This document shows positions 1-13,294 of a DNA stretch of 13,645 bases, piece after piece (position 1 is the stretch's first letter; every line of letters starts with the position of its first letter). A program made the position numbers and the translations under genes. The stretch lies in IMG/VR virus record IMGVR_UViG_2541047884_000005; one strand, 5' to 3'. Source of the stretch: a virus. Lineage: Duplodnaviria > Heunggongvirae > Uroviricota > Caudoviricetes. The notes below the pieces were generated by a model, which saw only the letters and a list, made by a program, of their open reading frames with translations, ran no database searches and was not told the origin of the DNA.

Positions 1-92
1 CAGAAAAAGCTTATTATGCTTCCATCGGAAACGATGATCTGGCAGCCTGAGTTCACAGATAAAACACTCTCCAGGAAACCCGGGGCGGTTCA
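1..92 (+). mobile_element. IS629-like right end, partial copy truncated by the window edge
   Basis: Positions 1-92 are identical to 6475-6566, the last 92 bp of the complete IS copy including the terminal ...CCCGGGGCGGTTCA inverted repeat. Confidence 0.85.
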
Positions 93-330
93 CTTTGCCT
101 CCCCAGCCGCCGACCATGCCAGATTGAGAGAGTACGGGAAATGCCTCGATAACGATCTTGATCGCTTCGTTGAGACGTTCAATATCGACATCGGAACCCA
201 TATTAGGTGGGCATCCCTGATAGCAGACTCGACCATTTTGGATGCTAACAAGGCTCTTGAGCATGGCATAATTAATTCCATAAAAACTGCAAGGCTGGCA
301 TCCAATCAGGCAAACTGGTGGGTTGTTTGA
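93..330 (+). pseudogene. Possible 3' remnant of an unknown gene cut by the IS insertion (reading frame continues out of the IS end)
   Basis: Open frame from inside the IS end to a stop at 328-330, converging on the terminator at 352-380. No recognisable family, so it may be non-coding. Confidence 0.2.
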
Positions 331-351
331 TGGGTAAATCATGATTACTCC

Positions 352-380
352 TTATAAAAAACCCACCTGACGGTGGGTTT
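352..380 (-). terminator. Rho-independent terminator of the 1403->379 operon
   Basis: Perfect 7-bp stem ACCCACC (361-367) / GGTGGGT (372-378) with a TGAC loop. On the minus strand it is followed by a T-run (reverse complement of 351-360) and sits directly after the stop at 379-381. Confidence 0.7.
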
Positions 381-828
381 AGTCAAACATAGTGTTTCTA
401 AAGTCTCTCGCATACCCTGCTAACACTCTCATTCTATTATGATTGTTAGCAGACATGTGAGCTACAGGATGAAAAAGAGCAATCAATGAATACCTGTTCT
501 CATCAAAAAGATTTTGTGCATAAACGAGAGCGGTATTGGATGTTTTATGCCACTGCAACTTTTGCGGTGTGCTGATATCTGTGCCATTTTTTATTGGCTC
601 AAATTTATTTTCACCAATTGCTAAATGAAGGTGCATAAGGCCTGCATCTTCAATATCAGGAGGTCGATGATAAGAGGTGTCTCTGCCAAAATAGCTGGGC
701 AACGTTCCCGTAGACTTGTAGATGATAAAATCATCTACAAGTGTTTGTTTTAAATCAGGAAACTCAACAAAAACCGGGGAGAAAAAATAGTCAAAACTAT
801 CCTGATTATATTCCACGGTTACTTGCAT
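379..828 (-). CDS. Hypothetical 149-aa protein, second gene of accessory pair; no family recognised
   Basis: ORF with GAGG Shine-Dalgarno overlapping the upstream gene's stop, 8-bp gap to ATG (826-828), and terminator immediately downstream. Hand-counted 60-nt sample (541-600) had 25 G+C. Confidence 0.7.
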   Translation of the reverse strand: MQVTVEYNQDSFDYFFSPVFVEFPDLKQTLVDDFIIYKSTGTLPSYFGRDTSYHRPPDIEDAGLMHLHLAIGENKFEPIKNGTDISTPQKLQWHKTSNTALVYAQNLFDENRYSLIALFHPVAHMSANNHNRMRVLAGYARDFRNTMFD

Positions 829-836
829 GTTTTACC

Positions 837-1403
837 TCAGTGGAAGTTACCAGAGTGAAACACACGAGTCCCGTGCTCAGCAAGCGCACGCAAACCAGCC
901 ATATCTACGGAACTATCAAAAACAACCGGAACACATGAGCGTTGTTTAATAAGACTATTCAGGTTGGTTACGGCAGATCTGGCATCAGCAACAACGATAT
1001 AGATATCTCTTGCGATCTCTTTAAAATCAGCAGAAGCTTCTTTGAATACCGATTTCATTGCCCCTTCAAGTCCTCTCAATTGATGCTCTATCAATCGAGA
1101 CTTTTCTGGTTCAATGATAGACAACACATTGTCTACATTCTCATCGGTAGCGTTTGCAAGAACACGATAAGCGTATTTCAGCATTCGAGACAATTCTTTA
1201 ATCGAAGACACCGCCTCATGAAGCTCATCATTAGCCCGTTCACTGCTGAATGAGGATTGATGGTAAGCGTGCTGAACGTTATCAGTAACAACCACCTCAC
1301 AACTGAACGCAGAAGCTTGCTGTAATAGCAAACCTATTGCGACTCCAGCTTTGGCAGCGTTCAAGCTAAACATTTCATCAATCCCATTAGTCTCATTGCT
1401 CAT
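837..1403 (-). CDS. Hypothetical 188-aa acidic, mostly helical-looking protein, first gene of accessory pair
   Basis: ATG at 1401-1403 preceded by AAGGAGG (reverse complement of 1409-1415) at 5-nt spacing. The ORF-track start at 1433 is a TTG without an RBS, so the 1403 start is preferred. Confidence 0.7.
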   Translation of the reverse strand: MSNETNGIDEMFSLNAAKAGVAIGLLLQQASAFSCEVVVTDNVQHAYHQSSFSSERANDELHEAVSSIKELSRMLKYAYRVLANATDENVDNVLSIIEPEKSRLIEHQLRGLEGAMKSVFKEASADFKEIARDIYIVVADARSAVTNLNSLIKQRSCVPVVFDSSVDMAGLRALAEHGTRVFHSGNFH

Positions 1404-1578
1404 ACAAACCTCCTTCTTATCGGAGATTATCAATAGCTATGCATCCATTGAATACACGCTATGCGCAATAAGTTTACGTCACGTGATATCATTATGCAAC
1501 CACCGTTCTATCACCGACTAACTTTACTCCCACTCCTATACATCATCTGGTATCCTGCGCAAAACTAAGGAGGTTGGT

Positions 1579-1929
1579 GTGAATGCTCAGTCTGTCATCA
1601 TGGTTTTCCTTGGGCTGATTGTCGCAAAACTATATCCAGACTGGTGGAAAGGGGCATTAGCTACTGTCGCCATCTATTTGCTTTTATCCATCGTTAAGCG
1701 ATCACTCGCTGAGACCGTAAATCAAGCAAAACGTTTCTCATTTAAGAGTTTAATAAACTATGTTACTGGGCTTATTTTTTGCCTTTCAATTCTGATCGCT
1801 TCGGCTTTTTTGCCCGTATCAATAGCTAATTTTTTTGGCGCACCATATGAGGTAGGTTATCTATTCTCTGTTTCCTGTCTTGCCATTGCTCTTCTTTACC
1901 TGTGGACGAGATCAAAGAATAAAAATTAG
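1579..1929 (+). CDS. Small polytopic membrane protein, 116 aa, about four hydrophobic segments
   Basis: GTG start with AAGGAGG (1567-1573) at 5-nt spacing. Hydrophobic stretches such as VIMVFLGLIVAKLY and LIFCLSILIASAFLPVSIANFF. Hand-counted sample 1741-1800 had 18 G+C in 60 nt. Divergent from the 1403->379 operon. Confidence 0.65.
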   Translation: MNAQSVIMVFLGLIVAKLYPDWWKGALATVAIYLLLSIVKRSLAETVNQAKRFSFKSLINYVTGLIFCLSILIASAFLPVSIANFFGAPYEVGYLFSVSCLAIALLYLWTRSKNKN

Positions 1930-1946
1930 CCATCCGTGGCTGCCAG

Positions 1947-3962
1947 TTATTGAGCTTCTTTTTGTGATGCCTGTGCGACTCTGGTGAGCGATTGTGTGAC
2001 CGTACTGATCGCTCTGTCATATGCTGTGCTACCTTTTGGCGTATTTGCCAGACGTAACAAGGCATTTCGTATAACAGGGCTTTCGTATGCCTTCGCAGCT
2101 CCTCCTACGACACCAGCAGCAGGAACAACAAACGCAGCCGTTTTTAGCATCCCCGCTAATACTGCTGCGTTTATGATGCCACCACCAACTAACAATCCAT
2201 AAAGCTGCTGACCATTTAAGTTTTGAACGTTCGCTTTTGCCGCGTGTCTTGTATCGTTGAGGTATTTAATAACGCCGTCCAGTTCCTTTCCATGTACGCC
2301 TTTAAAGAAAGTTGCTGATTGCTTCCTGTTCCGGTGTAACGCATTAATAAACTTTTCAACACTAATATTTCCAGACGGATCAGTCGCCTTATCTACAGCA
2401 TTCTGAACTATGGCTGCTCGTGCGTTTTGCCTACCATTGTCATCCAGAAGCCTGTAAAGCTGAGAACGTTCTGATGGGTTTTGGCTAAAAACGAGTTTTG
2501 TTACATCCTCAGGTGTAGCCTTGCCGCTGGCTATTGCCTTTTGAACGCGCGTTCTTCCCATCATGTCATTGAATCTAGCCCATGAGCGATCAACCCTAGA
2601 CATATTGGCAGCTTCTTCTGAGCCTAGTTTTTGGGATACTGCTTTTTTCATATCCGCTGTATATGCCTTGTAGACAATATCGCTGGCTTTCTGGAGCGTG
2701 TCTTTATCAACAGTCTCGTTTGAATTCATGAACCGCTTTCGAAGGTCAGTTCTGTTTTCTCTCGCCAGACGCAGGTCATTGGGTCCGCTGGTGATATCGT
2801 CTTTAAATTGCTGCAAGACTTTTACCGCGGCTCTATCCTGAGATTTGCCCGGGCGGCTTAACACGGCAATCTGATTGTCGATAGCTTTTACCGTGTTTGA
2901 GAGATCGACAGGGGTATCCCCCATAGCGTCAATTATGCGGTTATATCGCTTTCCTGCTGCCTCAATGAATTTTTGTTGCCCTTTAGTCGCAGATTCATAA
3001 AGCTGTTTATCAGAAATGCCACCCAGACCATCGCTAAATGTTCTGACTAAATTTTCTCGTGCTTGTTGTTGATTCAGCCGATTCTTACCGGTTCCAAAAA
3101 AAGGAACTCTTTCGCCTAATGTCTGAGCCTGACTCTGCATAAAGGTTTTATCTTTCAGCGTGTCACTGGTCATTAACGGCAGGTTTCTTTCCGACGCAAA
3201 ATCGACAGCAGCCTTTGCTTCCGGTGACATCTCACCGCGAACAGCCCTGGAAACCGCACTAACTGTATTTTCCAGCCCCTTGCCAACACCACCAATGCCA
3301 GCAGAAATTACCGTTTGTGCAGGATCAATATCTTCTCCGCCAGCAAGGCTGGTGCCACCCTGTAGTGCTAAATCTGTAGCAGCTGATTTCCCTATGGCAC
3401 CAAGCACCGTTCCAGCCCTGCCCGCTGGTGTGAACGCTAACGCATTAGCAAGAAACGAAGTCAGGTCTTGCGGTGATAAACCTGGCTTGTTCAGGGCATA
3501 ATCACCGGATGGCAGGGAAACGATAGTGTTACCCTTCTCATCCTGCCTTAATTTCGCCCCCATACTCTGAAGAATCTTTTCCTGAGACGCGTCGGAGCCG
3601 AAAAGTTGAGACCATCCAGCCTTCAGGGCATCCATGCTTAGTGAGTTCAACTCAGGGGCAGCCCCAACATTTTGCAGTCTCTCCATTTCTGGTGTCATTC
3701 GGCTTTCACCGGTAACGGCATCGCGCATTGCAGCACCTAAAACAGCCCCTTGCTCAGCAGAGCGATCTAGTCCTTCCTTCTGCTGAGTGGCAAGCTGTGC
3801 ATATCCTGATGCAAGTGAGTTGTCTGCTGGCGATTGCTGAACACCTTGTTGTGTTGGCGCTGACTGACCAGCAAAATACTCATCAATGGCGGACCCAATA
3901 TCTTCCGTGCTCGTACCATCAGGAAAGGTAAATGTCTTACCATTTGCAGTTACTTTCATCAT
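1947..3962 (-). CDS. Virion internal / DNA-ejection protein-like, P22 gp16-class, 671 aa
   Basis: Long Ala/Gly/Gln/Ser-rich ORF whose ATG overlaps the upstream gene's stop (ATGA at 3959-3962), in late-gene orientation. Family assignment is by context and composition, not a verified alignment. Confidence 0.6.
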   Translation of the reverse strand: MMKVTANGKTFTFPDGTSTEDIGSAIDEYFAGQSAPTQQGVQQSPADNSLASGYAQLATQQKEGLDRSAEQGAVLGAAMRDAVTGESRMTPEMERLQNVGAAPELNSLSMDALKAGWSQLFGSDASQEKILQSMGAKLRQDEKGNTIVSLPSGDYALNKPGLSPQDLTSFLANALAFTPAGRAGTVLGAIGKSAATDLALQGGTSLAGGEDIDPAQTVISAGIGGVGKGLENTVSAVSRAVRGEMSPEAKAAVDFASERNLPLMTSDTLKDKTFMQSQAQTLGERVPFFGTGKNRLNQQQARENLVRTFSDGLGGISDKQLYESATKGQQKFIEAAGKRYNRIIDAMGDTPVDLSNTVKAIDNQIAVLSRPGKSQDRAAVKVLQQFKDDITSGPNDLRLARENRTDLRKRFMNSNETVDKDTLQKASDIVYKAYTADMKKAVSQKLGSEEAANMSRVDRSWARFNDMMGRTRVQKAIASGKATPEDVTKLVFSQNPSERSQLYRLLDDNGRQNARAAIVQNAVDKATDPSGNISVEKFINALHRNRKQSATFFKGVHGKELDGVIKYLNDTRHAAKANVQNLNGQQLYGLLVGGGIINAAVLAGMLKTAAFVVPAAGVVGGAAKAYESPVIRNALLRLANTPKGSTAYDRAISTVTQSLTRVAQASQKEAQ

Positions 3963-5256
3963 TCCACCGTAAATTGAATGCCTGATTTTGACGTGTAGCT
4001 ACCTCCTGCTGATTGCTGAGTAGCTGGCTGTTGCCTTGATGATTTCTTCCCGCCATTACCAACATTAACGTTATATTGCTGGTTGTAATTGTCGGTATAT
4101 TGCTGAATGTCGCGCATTGATTGTTGCAGCGCTTCAGGACTTGAGAAATCAGGCTTTGGCATACCCTGAAAATACCTATTGGCCTCTGCTTCGGTGTTGA
4201 TGCCAGATGCCCCCATATCTCGGGCTGCTGCAATCCCCTGATTTTGCATTTTGCCCATGATTCGCTGTGCAGCGTTGTATAGCCTCCTCTCCTCAACACC
4301 AGATGCCCTGCTACGAATATCTGCACCAAGAGCAAAAGAACCTGAAGAACCTGTAATACCTGTCATGAAGCCAAGATCGTCAATTGATGCGCCAGAAATT
4401 GCATCAAGATCTTTCTTCATTTCGTAATTCTGTGCATTAGCTGCCGATGTAGCCGGAGCAGCAATAGAACTGGCGGGGACGCGAATCATATTGCCCTCGT
4501 TGTCTATTCCTTCGTAGAACGCATTAGCACCAGCGCCGTGAAGCTTCCTACCAACCGTTACCGTTCTGCCATCTGCCAGTTGCACAACATTCTCCCCGCC
4601 AGCATCAGGACGACCTCGAACACGAAGATATGTCTTTTGTTGCTCTGGAGACAGGCTGTTGAAATATTGATATTCTTTAACAGATGCAGGAACAGCACCT
4701 CCAGCAGTGCGCAGGGAGTTTTCACGGCTAACAGCAATGCTTTGCGCCTTTAAACCTTCCCCAGCTTTATTGCTGCGAATCGTCTCTGCCAACTTGCCAC
4801 GCTCAATATCCCGACCTTCCATTTGATCTTTGATATCGAAATACTTCTCATGACCGAGAGAAAATAGTGCCAGATTACCTGCGAAGTGCTGGAAGCCCTG
4901 CGGGTCATTAACCTGCATTTCCGCAATAGTTTCTGGAGGGATACCTAAACGACGCATCTCCTTTTCGTTATCCATCATGAACCTGCCAAATGCACCCGGA
5001 CCAAGCGACGAAGCGACCTGAGCCTTAAGCGCCAGATTGCCAAAATCATCCCGCTGGGCGTCATCGACATACCCCATGCCTTTACGGACTTCCTCAAACT
5101 CTTCGGGGAATGCTGTAATAAGATTACGCATCTGCTCCCTGTCGCCGGACGCATAAGCATCCGCATAACCTTTCTGGAATGCCGCTTTACGCTCCTGCTT
5201 TTGCTGCTGCTTATAAATATCAGCAACTCCAGCCAGACCACGAAGACCTGTCAGAG
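3959..5256 (-). pseudogene. 5'-truncated ejection-protein-like gene (P22 gp20-class), decapitated by IS629
   Basis: Frame is open without a stop from the ORF-track Met (5131) all the way up to the IS boundary at 5256, so the original start and promoter are gone. Gly/Ala/Gln-rich; coupled to the downstream gene. Confidence 0.6.
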
Positions 5257-5310
5257 TGAACCGCCCCGGGAATCCTGGAGACTAAACTTCCTGAGAAAGA
5301 GGTAAACAGG

Positions 5311-5637
5311 ATGACTAAAAATACTCGTTTTTCCCCCGAAGTCCGTCAACGGGCAGTCCGTATGGTTCTGGAAAGTCAGAGCGAATATGACTCACAATGG
5401 GCGACAATTTGTTCCATTGCTCCAAAGATTGGCTGTACGCCGGAGACTCTGCGTGTCTGGGTTCGCCAGCATGAGCGGGATACCGGGGGCGGTGATGGAG
5501 GGCTCACCACCGCTGAACGTCAGCGTCTGAAAGAGCTGGAACGTGAAAATCGTGAACTGCGCCGCAGTAACGATATCCTTCGCCAGGCTTCCGCTTATTT
5601 TGCGAAGGCGGAGTTCGACCGCCTCTGGAAAAAATGA
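5311..5637 (+). CDS. IS629 transposase OrfA (HTH / leucine-zipper part)
   Basis: 108-aa [23 protein letters not shown]... matches my memory of IS629/IS1203 OrfA. Ends at TGG AAA AAA TGA, the A6 run (5629-5634) typical of IS3-family -1 frameshift windows. Confidence 0.9.
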
Positions 5638-6524
5638 TGCCACTGCTGGATAAGCTGCGTGAGCAGTACGGGGTCGGACCGCTATGCAGCGAACTGCATA
5701 TTGCCCCGTCAACGTATTACCACTGTCAGCAACAGCGACATCATCCGGATAAACGCAGTGCCCGTGCGCAGCGCGATGACTGGCTGAAGAAAGAGATACA
5801 GCGCGTATACGATGAAAATCACAAGGTATACGGTGTGCGTAAAGTCTGGCGTCAGTTGTTACGGGAAGGTATCAGAGTGGCCAGATGCACTGTGGCACGT
5901 CTCATGGCGGTTATGGGACTTGCCGGTGTTCTCCGGGGTAAAAAGGTCCGTACGACCATCAGCCGGAAAGCCGTTGCCGCAGGCGACCGCGTAAACCGTC
6001 AGTTCGTGGCAGAACGACCTGACCAGCTGTGGGTGGCTGATTTTACTTACGTCAGCACATGGCGGGGCTTCGTCTATGTGGCGTTCATCATTGATGTGTT
6101 TGCCGGATACATCGTGGGGTGGCGGGTCTCATCGTCCATGGAAACGACATTCGTGCTGGATGCACTGGAGCAGGCGTTATGGGCCCGTCGACCGTCCGGC
6201 ACGGTCCATCACAGTGATAAAGGTTCTCAGTATGTATCGCTGGCCTACACACAGCGGCTTAAGGAAGCCGGATTACTGGCATCAACAGGAAGTACAGGCG
6301 ACTCGTATGACAACGCGATGGCGGAGAGCATCAATGGTCTTTACAAAGCGGAGGTAATACACCGTAAGAGCTGGAAAAACCGTGCAGAAGTGGAACTGGC
6401 CACACTCACGTGGGTGGACTGGTATAACAATCGACGATTGCTGGAAAGGCTGGGCCATACTCCTCCGGCAGAAGCAGAAAAAGCTTATTATGCTTCCATC
6501 GGAAACGATGATCTGGCAGCCTGA
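5634..6524 (+). CDS. IS629 transposase OrfB (DDE/rve catalytic domain), expressed as OrfAB fusion by -1 frameshift
   Basis: -1 frame relative to orfA, overlapping at the A6 run. Contains DDE-type motifs ([30 protein letters not shown]). Confidence 0.9.
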
Positions 6525-6566
6525 GTTCACAGATAAAACACTCTCCAGGAAACCCGGGGCGGTTCA

Positions 6567-6600
6567 CGGCGGGAATGAGGACCATGACTGTTAAAGAGCA
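6567..6600 (-). promoter_or_regulatory. nutR remnant: intact boxA plus the 5' half of boxB, cut by the IS629 junction
   Basis: On the minus strand: TGCTCTTTAACA (reverse complement of 6589-6600), a 14-nt spacer, then TCCCGCCG (reverse complement of 6567-6574), identical to the first 8 nt of the nutL boxB hairpin at 7714-7731. The next base is the IS terminus. Confidence 0.5.
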
Positions 6601-6606
6601 ATTTGC

Positions 6607-6792
6607 TTATGCCGCTTTGCGGTAAGCGCTTTCTTGATACTTCAGGGCGCCAGCTGTAACGACTTCCAGTCGATAGGCGTCTTTCTCTGGGATGACTTCC
6701 TTCCACTGAGAGACTGCTGCGTCGCTAATGCCTAACGCTTTAGCTACAGCACGCTGGGTTCCGAAGTGGTCGATAACATCTTTCTTGTACAT
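6607..6792 (-). CDS. cro: Cro repressor, P22-type
   Basis: 61-aa MYKKDVIDHFGTQRAVAKALGISDAAVSQWKE... with HTH; matches remembered P22 Cro. GGAG RBS upstream; divergent from the repressor gene across the operator region. Confidence 0.9.
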   Translation of the reverse strand: MYKKDVIDHFGTQRAVAKALGISDAAVSQWKEVIPEKDAYRLEVVTAGALKYQESAYRKAA

Positions 6793-6872
6793 AGACTCGC
6801 TCCGAAATTAAAGAACACTTAAATTATCCACTAAAGGAATCTTAAGTCAAGTTTATTTAAGATGTCTTAACT
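6793..6872. promoter_or_regulatory. OR operator region with PR/PRM; three 18-bp operators
   Basis: Three matches to the P22-type operator pattern ANTNAAG-N4-CTTNANT at 6807-6824, 6830-6847 and 6855-6872. The last abuts the c2 ATG with no RBS, consistent with a leaderless PRM transcript. Confidence 0.65.
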
Positions 6873-7523
6873 ATGAAAACTCAATTGATGGGAGAGCGCA
6901 TTCGCGCTCGGAGAAAAGAACTCAAGATCAGGCAGGCCGCACTTGGAAAGATGGTCGGCGTGTCTAATGTTGCCATATCTCAGTGGGAACGCTCTGAGAC
7001 AGAGCCAAATGGAGAGAATCTTCTCGCCCTGGCTAATGCGTTGAAGTGTTCCCCTGACTATCTGATGAAAGGAGAGGAAAGTCTTTCAAACATTGCCTAT
7101 CACAGTAGGCATGATCCAAGAGGGTCATACCCTCTGATTAGCTGGGTGAGCGCAGGATGCTGGATGGAAGCTGTAGAACCATATCATAAGCGTGCAATAG
7201 ATAACTGGTACGATACAACCGTAGACTGTTCAGAAGATTCGTTTTGGTTGGACGTGAAGGGAGACTCAATGACGGCTCCGGCCGGTCTCAGTATCCCTGA
7301 AGGAATGATAATACTCGTCGATCCTGAAGTAGAGCCGCGTAACGGGAAACTGGTAGTTGCAAAGCTCGAAGGAGAAAACGAGGCAACTTTCAAGAAGTTA
7401 GTTATTGATGCAGGCAGGAAGTTTCTAAAACCACTTAACCCACAATATCCGATGATCGAGATCAACGGAAACTGCAAAATCATCGGCGTAGTTGTCGATG
7501 CAAAACTAGCAAACCTTCCATAA
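6873..7523 (+). CDS. c2: Prophage repressor C2 (CI-type: HTH plus S24 LexA-like autopeptidase domain)
   Basis: 216 aa, near-identical to my memory of P22 C2 (MxTQLMGERIRARRK...GVVVDAKLANLP). Ala-Gly cleavage site (VSAGCWM) and GDSM serine motif present. Confidence 0.93.
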   Translation: MKTQLMGERIRARRKELKIRQAALGKMVGVSNVAISQWERSETEPNGENLLALANALKCSPDYLMKGEESLSNIAYHSRHDPRGSYPLISWVSAGCWMEAVEPYHKRAIDNWYDTTVDCSEDSFWLDVKGDSMTAPAGLSIPEGMIILVDPEVEPRNGKLVVAKLEGENEATFKKLVIDAGRKFLKPLNPQYPMIEINGNCKIIGVVVDAKLANLP

Positions 7524-7547
7524 GGGGGCATTCGCCCCTTTTTTTTT
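7524..7547 (+). terminator. Rho-independent terminator after c2
   Basis: GGGGC (7525-7529) / GCCCC (7534-7538) stem with ATTC loop, followed by nine T (7539-7547). Confidence 0.7.
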
Positions 7548-7550
7548 ATT

Positions 7551-7650
7551 TCCTTTAAAAATCAAAGCCAAACTTAAGTTACGAAAGAAAATTTAAGTTT
7601 TCTTCAAAAATGCTCTTGACCATTAATTAAAGAGATCTTAAATTTAAGCC
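7551..7650 (+). promoter_or_regulatory. OL operators and PL promoter
   Basis: Operator matches at 7626-7643 (ATTAAAGAGATCTTAAAT, perfect to the pattern) and 7591-7608 (one mismatch). TTGACC at 7616-7621 and TAAATT at 7639-7644 with 17-nt spacing, reading toward N. Confidence 0.55.
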
Positions 7651-7689
7651 ATCAGCAGGACGCTGGAAGCCAAACGGAACAGATTGGCA

Positions 7690-7731
7690 GGCTCTTTAAC
7701 ATTGATGGGATTGTCCCGCCGAAATGCGGGA
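7690..7731 (+). promoter_or_regulatory. nutL: boxA GGCTCTTTAACA plus boxB hairpin
   Basis: BoxA-consensus match at 7690-7701. After a 12-nt spacer, stem CCCGC (7715-7719) / GCGGG (7726-7730) with a CGAAAT loop. About 40-80 nt downstream of the predicted PL start, and the same boxA/boxB sequence recurs after cro. Confidence 0.55.
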
Positions 7732-8044
7732 ACCAAAGAGTAGTTGGCTTTGGGGTGACGTGAAGTGCAGCTGCACGACGGCAACCGGAAGATAAGCACC
7801 CGGCGCGTCACCGCCAAAGTCAATTCCATAGGCGTTATGCAGCCGCCACCATATTCAAGAAAGCTGCACAAGAGGTAGGAGGATTTATGTGAATGCATAA
7901 CTTCAAAACCGAGGTTAATTAAATCTCTCGATCCGAGCATCGACCTATTAGGTGGCGAGATGCTCTTTCTGCCCCTCAGTTCGAGGGGCCAGAAACCACT
8001 TTGCAATCACTATCAATTCCAAAGTTGTTTCATCGGAGGTCAAC

Positions 8045-8343
8045 ATGACAGTAGTCATTACATATCTGGCTGACGATAACGCCAGAAATCGCCGCAGAGC
8101 ACGCAGACAGGCTCAACGTGAACAGGCGATGCAAGACAGCGACTGGCGCGAAAAATTGCGCTAAAGCTCTCTGGTTGCGTCAGAGCGGATAAAGCAGCAT
8201 CACTCGGAATCCTTCGCTGCAAGAAGGCAGATGAAGTCGAGAGTAAACAGAATCGTATTTACTACCGCAAGCCACGCAGTGAAATGGGTGTGACTTGTGT
8301 TGGTCGCCAGAAAATGAAATTAGGCAGCAAACCACTTATTTGA
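8045..8343 (+). pseudogene. N: Antitermination protein N, interrupted by a 1-nt frameshift at an A5 run (8151-8155)
   Basis: Frame 2 from ATG 8045 (GGAGG RBS) gives MTVVITYLADDNARNRRRARRQAQREQ... (Arg-rich motif) and stops at 8162-8164. Frame 1 is open from 8122 to the TGA at 8341-8343 and ends ...RKPRSEMGVTCVGRQKMKLGSKPLI, resembling the lambda N C-terminus ...SKPGERGITCSGRQKIKGKSIPLI. Confidence 0.6.
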
Positions 8344-8351
8344 GGTGATAT

Positions 8352-8822
8352 ATGACAAAATCATGGAGCGTACCTTTTCCTGAATCAGAAACTGAACATG
8401 ATGGAATGCCTGTTTTCTGGAGATTCCAAGCGACAGTTGAAGAAGATGGAATCAAAATATTCGCACTTCAATATATAGCTTTTCATCAGACAGAGCATTA
8501 TGCATGGTTGGTTCCTGCGCATTGGATTGTTAATTTTAAACCAGCACCAAATCAGTGGTTACAGGAATGGAAACAAAGGAGAAATAGATATGCAATTAAG
8601 AAAGTAGCAAAAAATGCAGAAAGATCTTTTGCATTCCCGACGAAGAAACTTGCCATTGAAAGTTTATTGCGCCGGAAGAAATACCATTTGATGAGAATCA
8701 AACAAGATTTGGCTGTTGTATCAACTCTTGTTGATGGGATGAAGAATATTGATACATCAACACCAGGTATTGAATATAACTTTGGACACAACCAAGAAAC
8801 AGAAAACTGGGTGTTTTATTAG
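8352..8822 (+). CDS. Hypothetical 156-aa protein, low-GC gene between N and tL1-like terminator; no family recognised
   Basis: ATG at 8352 with GAGGTGA RBS, 8 nt after the N stop. Hand-counted sample 8352-8411 had 24 G+C in 60 nt versus 34 in a c2 sample (6901-6960). No transmembrane segments; basic central region. Confidence 0.75.
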   Translation: MTKSWSVPFPESETEHDGMPVFWRFQATVEEDGIKIFALQYIAFHQTEHYAWLVPAHWIVNFKPAPNQWLQEWKQRRNRYAIKKVAKNAERSFAFPTKKLAIESLLRRKKYHLMRIKQDLAVVSTLVDGMKNIDTSTPGIEYNFGHNQETENWVFY

Positions 8823-8926
8823 TACGAATAAGCACTGTGTATTCATTCCAACGAGTGAATACACGGAGCAATGTCGCTCGTAACTAAACAGGAGCCGACT
8901 TGTTCTGATTATTGGAAATCTTCTTT

Positions 8927-8951
8927 GCCCTCCAGTGTGAGGGCTTTTTTA
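8927..8951 (+). terminator. Rho-independent terminator, tL1-like
   Basis: GCCCTC (8927-8932) / GAGGGC (8939-8944) stem with a 6-nt loop, then TTTTTT (8945-8950). Confidence 0.7.
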
Positions 8952-9016
8952 TATGCATACCAATAACGCTTCACTCGAGGCGTTTTCGTTATGCAATCAA
9001 ACAGAAGGAGCATCCT

Positions 9017-9187
9017 ATGCAACAGTTCGCTATTGCAGGGGCGGCATCGGTTCGCCCTTTCAACCCGATTTTATCGGTACAGCATTCACGAAAAAACATT
9101 TTAACCGGAGCAGACTTTAAACAACCAAGAATGAAAAGCTTGCTCGAAAAGCTTTGGGATATTTTGAAACAACAAGGCCGTCCATGA
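9017..9187 (+). CDS. cIII: CIII-like protein (FtsH inhibitor, protects CII)
   Basis: 56 aa. MQQFAIAGAA...KSLLEKLWDILKQQGRP resembles lambda CIII (MQYAIAGWP...ESLLERITRKLRDGWKRLIDILNQPGVP). AAGGAG RBS at 6-nt spacing. Confidence 0.75.
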   Translation: MQQFAIAGAASVRPFNPILSVQHSRKNILTGADFKQPRMKSLLEKLWDILKQQGRP

Positions 9188-9342
9188 GTTTTACGGATAA
9201 CTGGTCAGACGAAGAATTCATTCGTCAGATAAAAGAATTAATCGGTAACGAAGGAGATATTCATGTCACTTGCAACCACAGTGAAGGAGAGCAAGTTACA
9301 GAGACGCATGTACACGCAGAAAGCTCTCTGGTATCGCCATAA
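9184..9342 (+). CDS. Small hypothetical protein, 52 aa, in the position kil occupies in lambda
   Basis: ATG overlaps the cIII stop (ATGA at 9184-9187). Positional analogy only; the sequence is not recognised. Confidence 0.45.
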   Translation: MSFTDNWSDEEFIRQIKELIGNEGDIHVTCNHSEGEQVTETHVHAESSLVSP

Positions 9343-9443
9343 TGGTGACCGCGAAGGAATGCGGGTATGCCTTAATTTGTCCCGAGTCGAAGTATTAAAT
9401 CAGCGTTATTTCCTTGGGCCGTGTCCATTCTGAGAGCAATCAT

Positions 9444-10049
9444 ATGAGCAAAGAATTTTACGCAAGACTGGCAGCTATTCAGGAGAATCTGAACGCGCCA
9501 AAGAATCAGTACAACTCATTCGGAAAATATAAATACAGAAGCTGCGAAGATATTCTTGAAGGCGTTAAGCCGTTACTGAACGGTCTGTTTTTATCAATCA
9601 GCGATGAAGTTGTGTTGATTGGTGATCGGTATTACGTGAAAGCCACGGCAACTATTACCGATGGCGAAAACAGTCATACGGCAACCGCTCTTGCACGAGA
9701 GGAAGAAAGCAAGAAAGGAATGGATTCTGCACAAGTTACGGGAGCTACAAGCTCTTATGCACGCAAGTATTGCCTCAATGGTTTGTTCGGCATTGATGAT
9801 GCGAAAGATGCAGATACAGACGAGCATAAACATCAGCAGAACGCAGCAGCAAAGCAATCAAAACCATCACTTACACCTGAACAGGTTCTAAAAGCATTCA
9901 CTGACGCAGCAATGCAGAAAAACACCGTAGAAGAGCTTAAACAGGCGTTCGCCAAAGCGTGGAAGATGCTCGAAGGGACGCCGGAGCAGCACAAAGCGCA
10001 GGACGTTTACAACATCAGACGAGACGAATTAGAAGGGGCAACTGCTTAA
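9444..10049 (+). CDS. erf: Erf, essential recombination function protein (single-strand annealing)
   Basis: MSKEFYARLAAIQENLNAPKNQYNSFGKYKYRSCEDILEGVKPLL... matches remembered P22 Erf. The ORF-track start at 9414 is an upstream alternative; ATG 9444 is preferred. Confidence 0.9.
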   Translation: MSKEFYARLAAIQENLNAPKNQYNSFGKYKYRSCEDILEGVKPLLNGLFLSISDEVVLIGDRYYVKATATITDGENSHTATALAREEESKKGMDSAQVTGATSSYARKYCLNGLFGIDDAKDADTDEHKHQQNAAAKQSKPSLTPEQVLKAFTDAAMQKNTVEELKQAFAKAWKMLEGTPEQHKAQDVYNIRRDELEGATA

Positions 10050-13093: not shown

Positions 13094-13294
13094 ATGCAAC
13101 ACGAACTACAACCTGATTCACTGGTTGATTTGAAATTCATCATGGCCGATACTGGCTTCGGTAAAACCTTCATCTATGACCGGATTAAGTCCGGCGACCT
13201 GCCAAAAGCCAAAGTTATCCACGGGCGAGCAAGATGGTTATATCGTGACCATTGTGAATTCAAAAATAAGCTCTTAAGCCGCGCCAATGGGTAA
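13094..13294 (+). CDS. AlpA/Xis-family small DNA-binding protein (excisionase-like)
   Basis: 66 aa. ...LVDLKFIMADTGFGKTFIYDRIKSGDLPKAKVIHGRARWLYRD... follows the AlpA/excisionase HTH pattern, in the position of xis at the end of the PL operon. Confidence 0.65.
   Translation: MQHELQPDSLVDLKFIMADTGFGKTFIYDRIKSGDLPKAKVIHGRARWLYRDHCEFKNKLLSRANG

Follow-up and report, generated by a model that had tools for sequence, protein, structure and literature searches.

Locus organisation

The stretch of DNA analysed here, referred to as the window (13,645 nucleotides, nt; IMG/VR record IMGVR_UViG_2541047884_000005), is part of a defective lambdoid prophage of Escherichia coli, with its + strand running in the direction of the early-left promoter PL. 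Its focal gene, an open reading frame (ORF) of 156 amino acids (aa) that begins with ATG and occupies 8352-8822 (+), lies between the antiterminator gene N and a conserved non-coding element carrying an intrinsic terminator. The gene, named gp45 here after its counterpart in phage HK97, is foreign in composition and is carried as cargo by a hypervariable slot of the lambdoid early-left (PL) operon. An earlier note on this DNA had described an ORF that starts 8 nt past the N stop codon with a good ribosome-binding site, is followed by a strong terminator and would be co-transcribed with N from PL even in the absence of antitermination, all of which is borne out by the present analysis. The gap between the TGA closing the C-terminal frame of N (8341-8343) and the focal ATG measures 8 nt, the Shine-Dalgarno sequence GAGGTGAT is fully complementary to the 3' end of 16S rRNA with a GAGG-to-ATG spacing of 6 nt, and the terminator (stem 8927-8944, followed by T6) is the first one predicted on the + strand downstream of PL (7616-7644), so that none is predicted between PL and gp45. 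Among the positions covered by a simple consensus scan (6500-9600), only PR and PL were promoter-like, and the same scan found no sigma-70-like promoter in the interval upstream of the gene (7645-8351).

The low G+C content that had set the gene apart from its backbone is likewise confirmed. It amounts to 36.7% (29% at third codon positions, GC3), whereas the window as a whole has 46.2% and N has 49%, and the gene is approximately the lowest-GC 471-nt stretch of the 13.6-kb window (0.6th percentile). Such a composition is moron-like; a terminator is also present, but it is part of the shared PreS/tL2a element described below, and no sigma-70-like promoter is found by the simple scan. In comparison with homologs from Salmonella, Pectobacterium and Brenneria, the gene shows a non-synonymous divergence (dN) of 0.20-0.34 with synonymous sites saturated, while 40 residues are invariant across 23 homologs from Enterobacterales (55-99% identity). 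As judged from these alignments, the ORF is a genuine gene under purifying selection.

Identity and distribution of gp45

The focal protein matches PHROG 1636 (E = 1.1e-111) over residues 1-156 of the 156-position profile and is 98-99% identical to HK97 gp45 (NP_037731) and to NP_049479 of phage 933W. By these matches it is the protein catalogued as HK97 gp45, 933W NP_049479, phi24B vb_24B_11c and PHROG 1636. The earlier note had not recognised it; the ORF is a known one, annotated as hypothetical everywhere, the names across databases being 'hypothetical' or 'prophage protein' throughout. It is also a common gene, found in 83 phage records, mostly of Shiga-toxin phages (933W and phi24B included), while 563 of 5426 complete E. 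coli genomes contain the stretch comprising gp45 plus the terminator. The exact protein of the window is entered in UniRef as B7MH11_ECO45. HK97, 933W and phi24B share with the window the order N, gp45, hairpin, terminator with no substantial difference, except that the N allele of the window is of a different type from that of HK97 and 933W and is frameshifted.

Searches for a function returned chance-level matches at best. Pfam gave no match to the focal protein at E <= 10 save two chance-level ones, NCBIfam gave none, and PADLOC-DB v2 yielded a single chance-level hit (Cas1_II, E = 0.018, 12 bits, 45 residues). All PHROG matches of the focal protein and of 68 remote members of its family are of 'unknown function', and Pfam scans of these 68 members were without a match; no helix-turn-helix (HTH), ribbon-helix-helix (RHH) or other DNA-binding family was matched in the Pfam scans of gp45, remote members included. 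The Ral profile (PF11058) does not match gp45, while a Ral control sequence scored E = 1.6e-48, and none of the Pfam exclusion families SieB, RexA and RexB matches it. No paper on gp45 under any name came up when the literature was searched by accession, locus tag or gene name, and neither the 200-gene accessory-gene library of Silas et al. nor the supplements of the follow-up paper contain its motifs. Sequence alone points to no specific mechanism for gp45.

The N pseudogene and the left border of the cassette

As a correction to the earlier note, N is a pseudogene in the window. A 1-nt deletion near 8136 (CAAGAAC to CAAGAC) leads to an early stop codon at 8162-8164 and splits the gene into a frame encoding the N-terminus with its arginine-rich motif (8046-8164) and a frame encoding the C-terminus (8121-8343). 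Slippage in an A5 run at ~8153 was considered as the frameshift site and ruled out, as the alignment puts the deletion near 8136. Strain FY26 has the identical lesion, its N gene being marked 'frameshifted' in RefSeq, and the other genomes that are 100% identical over the region probably have it as well. In the otherwise identical prophage of FDAARGOS_1300, the alignment gives an intact N of 99 aa; this prophage shows the reverse state of the two genes, N being intact and gp45 disrupted, with the 3' end of gp45 broken by an IS3-family element followed by an IS4 element (locus L004, 8787-12102).

Identity among the window, HK97 and 933W is ~99% between ~8290 and ~8950, with flanks that differ, and the left border of the gp45 cassette falls within the last ~50 nt of the window-type N gene, which we take to be of the phage-21/H-19B type. 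The ~55 nt that separate the N stop codon from gp45 in HK97 (locus L001, 2450-2562) and 933W (L002) are, by comparison with window 8290-8351, an out-of-frame remnant of the 3' end of the window-type N (...TCVGRQKMKLGSKPLI). The presence of this remnant before gp45 in phages with the 933W/HK97-type N indicates that the cassette spread together with a piece of the window-type N, and the remnant travels with gp45 into phages carrying other N alleles or a nun-like gene.

The terminator and the PreS element

The earlier note had called the terminator tL1-like, an assignment that has to be replaced by tL2a/PreS on account of sequence identity with lambda. From 8832 to 8944 the window agrees base for base with the ral-ea10 intergenic DNA of lambda, through the terminator stem, in which five of the six pairs are G-C; the bases following the stem are CTTTTTT in the window and CGATTTTTT in lambda. 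The same site is annotated as a putative terminator in the HK97 record. The lambda stretch encodes LPR1, renamed PreS, an Hfq-dependent small RNA (sRNA) of ~88 nt, processed to ~68 nt, whose 3' end is the early-left terminator tL2a (bioRxiv 10.1101/2024.10.31.621285). Lambda PreS raises the translation of host dnaN, represses alaS and becomes detectable 10 min after induction, while none is detected in lysogens (bioRxiv 10.1101/2024.10.31.621285). Going by the identity of the two stretches, the terminator of the window is the homolog of lambda tL2a, and as such it ends the N-gp45 transcript and forms the 3' end of PreS.

Data on expression, Hfq binding and targets of PreS come from lambda, and the PreS of the window is known from its sequence. 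Its start is estimated to lie 41 nt after the focal stop codon, in the 3' untranslated region (UTR), and the processed ~68-nt form would start near 8883 by the same kind of estimate. The region is predicted to fold into a 5' stem-loop, a single-stranded stretch, the terminator and U6 (z = -3.75), and the combination of terminator hairpin and U tail is typical of Hfq-dependent sRNAs. No Rfam family matches window 7500-9500, and none exists for PreS/LPR1. The 12-bp hairpin with which the invariant element begins, just 5' of the estimated PreS start, is identical in lambda, HK97 and 933W, has an exact match in at least 120 viral contigs and could act as a processing or insulating structure for PreS. 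The element as a whole (8832-8951) occurs in 2238 of 5426 complete E. coli genomes, ~4 times the count of the gp45-plus-terminator stretch (563).

Since the terminator of gp45 is that of PreS, cargo genes placed next to N would be the natural mRNA context from which PreS is produced. The position of PreS in the 3' UTR, 41 nt past the stop codon, the conserved 12-bp hairpin at the junction and the single terminator shared by both could even be taken to mean that the gp45 ORF is subordinate to PreS, its mRNA serving as the PreS precursor or its protein assisting the sRNA. Such a role is highly improbable, as about three-quarters of the PreS-carrying E. coli genomes lack gp45 and have PreS behind unrelated genes, relatives of gp45 occur in phages devoid of PreS, and the strong conservation of its amino-acid sequence demonstrates selection on the protein as such.

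The N-to-PreS slot and its cargos

As delimited from sequence comparison, the slot extends from the 3' end of N (or Nun) on its left to the invariant non-coding element of ~120 nt on its right. The gene directly upstream of the invariant hairpin varies among the 102 distinct viral loci sampled: lambda-type Ral was found in ~30 of them, gp45 in 15, a protein with an Nmad5 domain in ~11, a predicted membrane protein (phrog_3054) in ~9 and a 62-aa protein (phrog_10407) in 7, with rarer cargos including a 293-aa phrog_12139 protein, a DUF7446 protein and two acidic proteins of ~107 aa. PADLOC returned no match among nine representatives of the non-Ral cargos. The claim of the earlier note that the N-proximal slot hosts restriction-alleviation genes is therefore well founded, Ral being the commonest occupant in related prophages and Silas et al. 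having labelled the region the 'Ral' accessory region, ranked second in their list. While gp45 was already known as an ORF, it is now placed as a cargo of this region, which is ranked among the most variable accessory regions of enterobacterial phages. The Nmad5 (nucleotide-modification-associated) gene is seen as slot cargo in E. coli prophages, for example at 1838-2461 of locus L101.

Ral (PF11058) resembles gp45 in being an early-expressed accessory gene, the last one before the PreS/tL2a element. The two differ in that Ral has 66 aa with a Cys-rich motif while gp45 has 156 aa without Cys, and their sequences show no similarity. The interval between N and ral in lambda spans ~750 nt and holds sieB and orf28, whereas gp45 directly follows N in the window; lambda tL1 also lies in the N-ral interval. 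Co-occurrence was assessed in 87 distinct IMG/VR loci with the PreS hairpin (L103-L222), where Ral was found in none of the 16 gp45 loci and in 34 of the 71 others (Fisher's exact p = 1.4e-4, uncorrected for relatedness). Phage phi367 (L015) carries both genes, ral followed by gp45, and Ral co-occurs with other cargos.

Those occupants of the slot that have a reported phenotype act at the interface of phage and immunity, Ral against type I restriction and orf184 as the trigger of an abortive system. Silas et al. assign the latter (AFM76385.1) to the accessory region that also holds ral and show that it sets off the gop-beta-cII abortive system; its homolog is one of the acidic cargos found in the N-to-PreS slot. 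It is similar to gp45 in occupying the same slot and in being a small soluble accessory protein, but it belongs to phrog_1372, is unrelated in sequence, is acidic where gp45 is basic, and has a tested phenotype. By extension, gp45 might be a cargo that brings no benefit to E. coli lambdoid phages, either a hitch-hiker or a liability sensed by host abortive systems. The cell death triggered through gop-beta-cII by orf184 from the same slot, together with the gp45 gene broken by IS3 in one strain, would fit such a reading. Nevertheless, it is very unlikely in the face of the near-identical copies that 563 complete E. coli genomes and many Shiga-toxin phages have retained, and of a family conserved across distant phage groups.

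The gp45 family and its predicted structure

The gp45 protein is soluble and basic, with a mass of 18.6 kDa, an isoelectric point of 9.27 and no Cys. It has no transmembrane segment (maximum 19-residue hydropathy 0.56), and residues 61-97 carry a net charge of +7, in agreement with the basic central region and absence of membrane segments noted earlier. An exhaustive profile search collected 87 family representatives at E < 1e-3 (PHROGs 1636, 13631, 25384 and 28215), which are single-domain proteins of about 130-170 aa once fragments and two spurious repeat proteins are excluded; the latter, the long proteins P0056 and P0080 from the remote search, are low-complexity repeats and not fusions. 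All 68 aligned members match phrog_1636 and 58 of the 68 match phrog_13631. The family core, present in the focal protein, consists of an aromatic-Arg pair at 23-24, G33, E/Q46-T47, K87, A101 and R/K-K at 108-109, and basic residues are conserved across the 68 members at R24, K75, K83, K84, K87, R91/92, K98, R108 and K109.

The confidence of the AlphaFold model rose from a pLDDT of 68.7 to 93.8 with a deeper alignment (pTM 0.81). It contains four strands, of which the first two form a long beta-hairpin (19-30/33-46) and the others lie at 50-55 and 83-86, together with two short helices, a 33-residue helix (98-130) and an ordered C-terminal tail, so that gp45 is modelled as an alpha/beta protein with a long beta-hairpin sheet. 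A PDB sequence search with two profiles found no solved structural relative (best E = 0.26). When the model was compared with predicted viral structures by Foldseek, 12 matches were obtained at E < 1e-3, none of them characterised and their phages widely different, among them proteins of Erwinia phiEa2809, Achromobacter phiAxp-3, Delftia RG-2014 and of Rhizobium, Tenacibaculum and Cellulophaga phages. The check by remote homology and structure prediction that the earlier note had proposed thus brought up these uncharacterised relatives and no match to a characterised housekeeping phage protein. An AP2-like or integrase arm-binding motif was also considered in RSFAFPTKKLAIESL (strand-strand-helix, residues ~80-115), and the profile comparison was negative.

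Relatives of gp45 in other phages

Members of the gp45 family are found in temperate as well as in virulent phages of Proteobacteria and are not always adjacent to N, a question that the earlier note had raised. In Pectobacterium and Brenneria prophages, the relative is the last gene before xis-int, while in Pseudomonas phage Medea1 it closes an early operon holding two methyltransferases. It directly follows a Cro-like HTH gene in Vibrio phage PvVp04, which is the place of cII in lambda. Salmonella phage NX263 has it at the head of a short operon that runs rightward between leftward structural genes and also holds a 'DNA binding protein' and a MarR-like gene, and in the metagenomic phage L098 it is the sole rightward gene between leftward structural genes. 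Furthermore, a virulent N4-like Pseudomonas phage has it in a cluster just after rIIA/rIIB-like genes. The gene is hence not tied to N, the common theme being early or accessory phage regions. Apart from these placements, PvVp04 has an Nmad5 gene three genes downstream of its gp45 relative (L009, 6448-7080).

In 10 related IMG/VR loci (L073 and nine others), gp45 follows a 114-aa nun-like gene after a gap of 131-133 nt. The arginine-rich motif and KKWS C-terminus of the 114-aa protein are what we take to be features of HK022 Nun, rather than of N. As HK022 expresses nun in lysogens, gp45 might also be expressed there in the phages with the nun-like gene.

Some of these arrangements recall a phage-intrinsic regulator, that is, a DNA- or RNA-binding factor that tunes the early programme (the choice between lysis and lysogeny, transcription or replication) without bearing on host immunity. 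Such a role would suit a basic protein with conserved Lys/Arg positions encoded by an immediate-early gene beside N, as well as the cII-like place of the PvVp04 relative and the company kept by the NX263 relative in its operon. On the other hand, gp45 is dispensable, most lambdoid phages carrying another gene in the slot, and its position differs between phages; moreover, no HTH, RHH or other DNA-binding family is matched, and the comparison with the AP2-like arm-binding domain profile was negative. A regulatory function is consequently considered rather doubtful.

Proposed function of gp45

The reading favoured here, held with a probability of about 0.5, is that gp45 is a host-acting factor serving the phage, in counter-defence or host take-over, and that its conserved basic residues probably serve to bind a nucleic acid or an acidic partner. 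The gene would be transcribed from PL on an immediate-early RNA shared with N and PreS, at infection or induction, and its product would act on a host component in the first minutes of lytic development, with the conserved basic face (R24, K75, K83, K84, K87, R91/92, K98, R108 and K109) contacting nucleic acid or an acidic protein. With no promoter-like site near gp45 and no predicted terminator after PL, the protein should be made only when PL fires, and the timing of lambda PreS supports this as far as the shared terminator is concerned. For an accessory gene that phages can do without, that alternates with Ral, comes first in expression and has relatives among virulent phages, a host-acting product is the best explanation. 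On this reading, gp45 does not protect the lysogen. By its place, the gene is set to be among the first phage products after infection or induction, and the question of what it does is easily addressed by the existing genetics of HK97, lambda and 933W.

Several considerations weigh against a host-acting factor of this kind. No experiment or homology ties the gp45 family to any activity, and counter-defence, though plausible, is drawn only from the location beside the place of Ral and from timing. Location is a weak guide, since the slot also carries an abortive-infection trigger (orf184) and probable membrane proteins. The promoter scan relied on a simple consensus, so that a promoter of weak or non-sigma-70 type may have been missed and the gene may be expressed in the lysogen; gp45 stands after a nun-like gene in about 10 related loci, and the gene arrangements of L098 and NX263 need a promoter of their own. 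Moreover, the N frameshift leaves ~190 nt untranslated before gp45, which may bring about Rho-dependent polarity and lower expression, and the basic surface is derived from sequence rather than from a measured electrostatic map.

Some of these observations can be turned towards a defence or superinfection-exclusion protein made by the lysogen, which would block incoming phages directly or through abortive infection. The RexAB and SieB systems belong to the same general immunity/N neighbourhood as gp45, and sieB of lambda sits in the very N-ral interval; some occupants of the slot are membrane proteins (phrog_3054); gp45 is AT-rich like many morons; the placements in L098 (sole rightward gene) and NX263 (head of a short rightward operon) are moron-like; about 10 related loci have the gene behind the nun-like gene; and it is intact in a defective, N-negative, IS-disrupted prophage. 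Rex and SieB are membrane-associated and expressed in lysogens from their own promoters, whereas gp45 has no transmembrane segment, no promoter-like site nearby (none between PL and the gene) and no match to PADLOC or to the Pfam families of SieB and Rex. In addition, the lambda RNA with the same terminator is absent in lysogens, and for the virulent phages that carry relatives of gp45 there is no lysogen in need of protection. A defence role is therefore judged unlikely. The suggestion of the earlier note that the gene is a single-gene defence or counter-defence candidate thus survives in its second half, counter-defence being plausible by location and timing, while defence in the manner of rex or sieB finds no support.

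If the favoured reading of gp45 as a host-acting factor is carried further, a broader and more tentative picture can be drawn, which taken as a whole is a good deal less probable. The gp45 family could represent a new structural class of immediate-early phage proteins that neutralise or subvert a host system, an alternative to Ral present in ~1/10 of complete E. coli genomes and in temperate as well as virulent phages. In N-defective cryptic prophages like the present one, the PL operon could then yield nothing beyond gp45 and PreS, a module of protein and sRNA under repressor control and presumably SOS-inducible, which the host may have kept.

Prophage setting

The features surrounding the focal gene are collected in Table 1. 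The PL-like promoter, placed downstream of the cI terminator between cI and nutL/N, conforms to the lambdoid layout, and the nutL-like site is so called by analogy with the annotated nutL of 933W and phi24B. The early-left operon resumes its conserved part at the 56-aa ORF (9017-9187), whose N-terminal sequence suggests a CIII-like protein.

Table 1. Coordinates of gp45 and of neighbouring features in the window
Feature	Position	Strand	Basis or remark
cro	6607-6792	-	ORF list
LexA-like cI	6873-7523		ORF list
Strong terminator after cI	7522-7541		Terminator prediction
PL-like sigma-70 promoter (TTGACC, 17-nt spacer, TAAATT)	7616-7644	+	Promoter scan
nutL-like site: boxA-like TGCTCTTTC (7961-7969), boxB hairpin GCCCCTC-AGTTC-GAGGGGC (7971-7989)	7961-7989	+	Read from sequence
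N antiterminator pseudogene	8046-8343	+	Three-frame translation, alignment with intact allele
Shine-Dalgarno GAGGTGAT of focal gene, overlapping the N stop codon	8342-8349	+	Sequence; conserved in HK97 and 933W
Focal gene (gp45), 156 aa	8352-8822	+	ORF list
Perfect 12-bp hairpin, loop CCAA, just 5' of estimated PreS start	8837-8864	+	RNA fold
Putative PreS/LPR1 ortholog (estimated, ~88 nt back from U tract)	8863-8950	+	Lambda identity, fold
Intrinsic terminator GCCCTC-CAGTGT-GAGGGC + T6, homolog of lambda tL2a	8927-8950	+	Terminator prediction, lambda identity
Second, weaker terminator-like hairpin AACGCTTCACTCGAGGCGTT + T-rich run	8965-8984	+	Common to HK97, not lambda or 933W
Downstream ORF, 56 aa (MQQFAIAG...), RefSeq coding sequence WP_001183771.1	9017-9187	+	ATG at 9017 within listed ORF 8912-9187
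CIII-like ORF, erf, SSB-like gene (our reading), abc2	In this order from 9017 on		ORF list and RefSeq of relatives

An IS3-family element is present in two copies in direct orientation, the last 93 nt of one at window 1-93 and a full copy of ~1.31 kb at 5256-6567, which carries an ALIL frameshift pseudoknot at 5592-5708. A distance of 40 nt separates the end of the full copy from cro, and the leftward genes at 379-5131 therefore stand in place of the early-right operon of FY26 (cII, replication, nin). In closely related genomes, torI and dsdC adjoin the same prophage, and the 66-aa ORF at 13094-13294 of the window corresponds to the TorI-type excisionase/response-regulator inhibitor annotated there at the prophage end beside dsdC.

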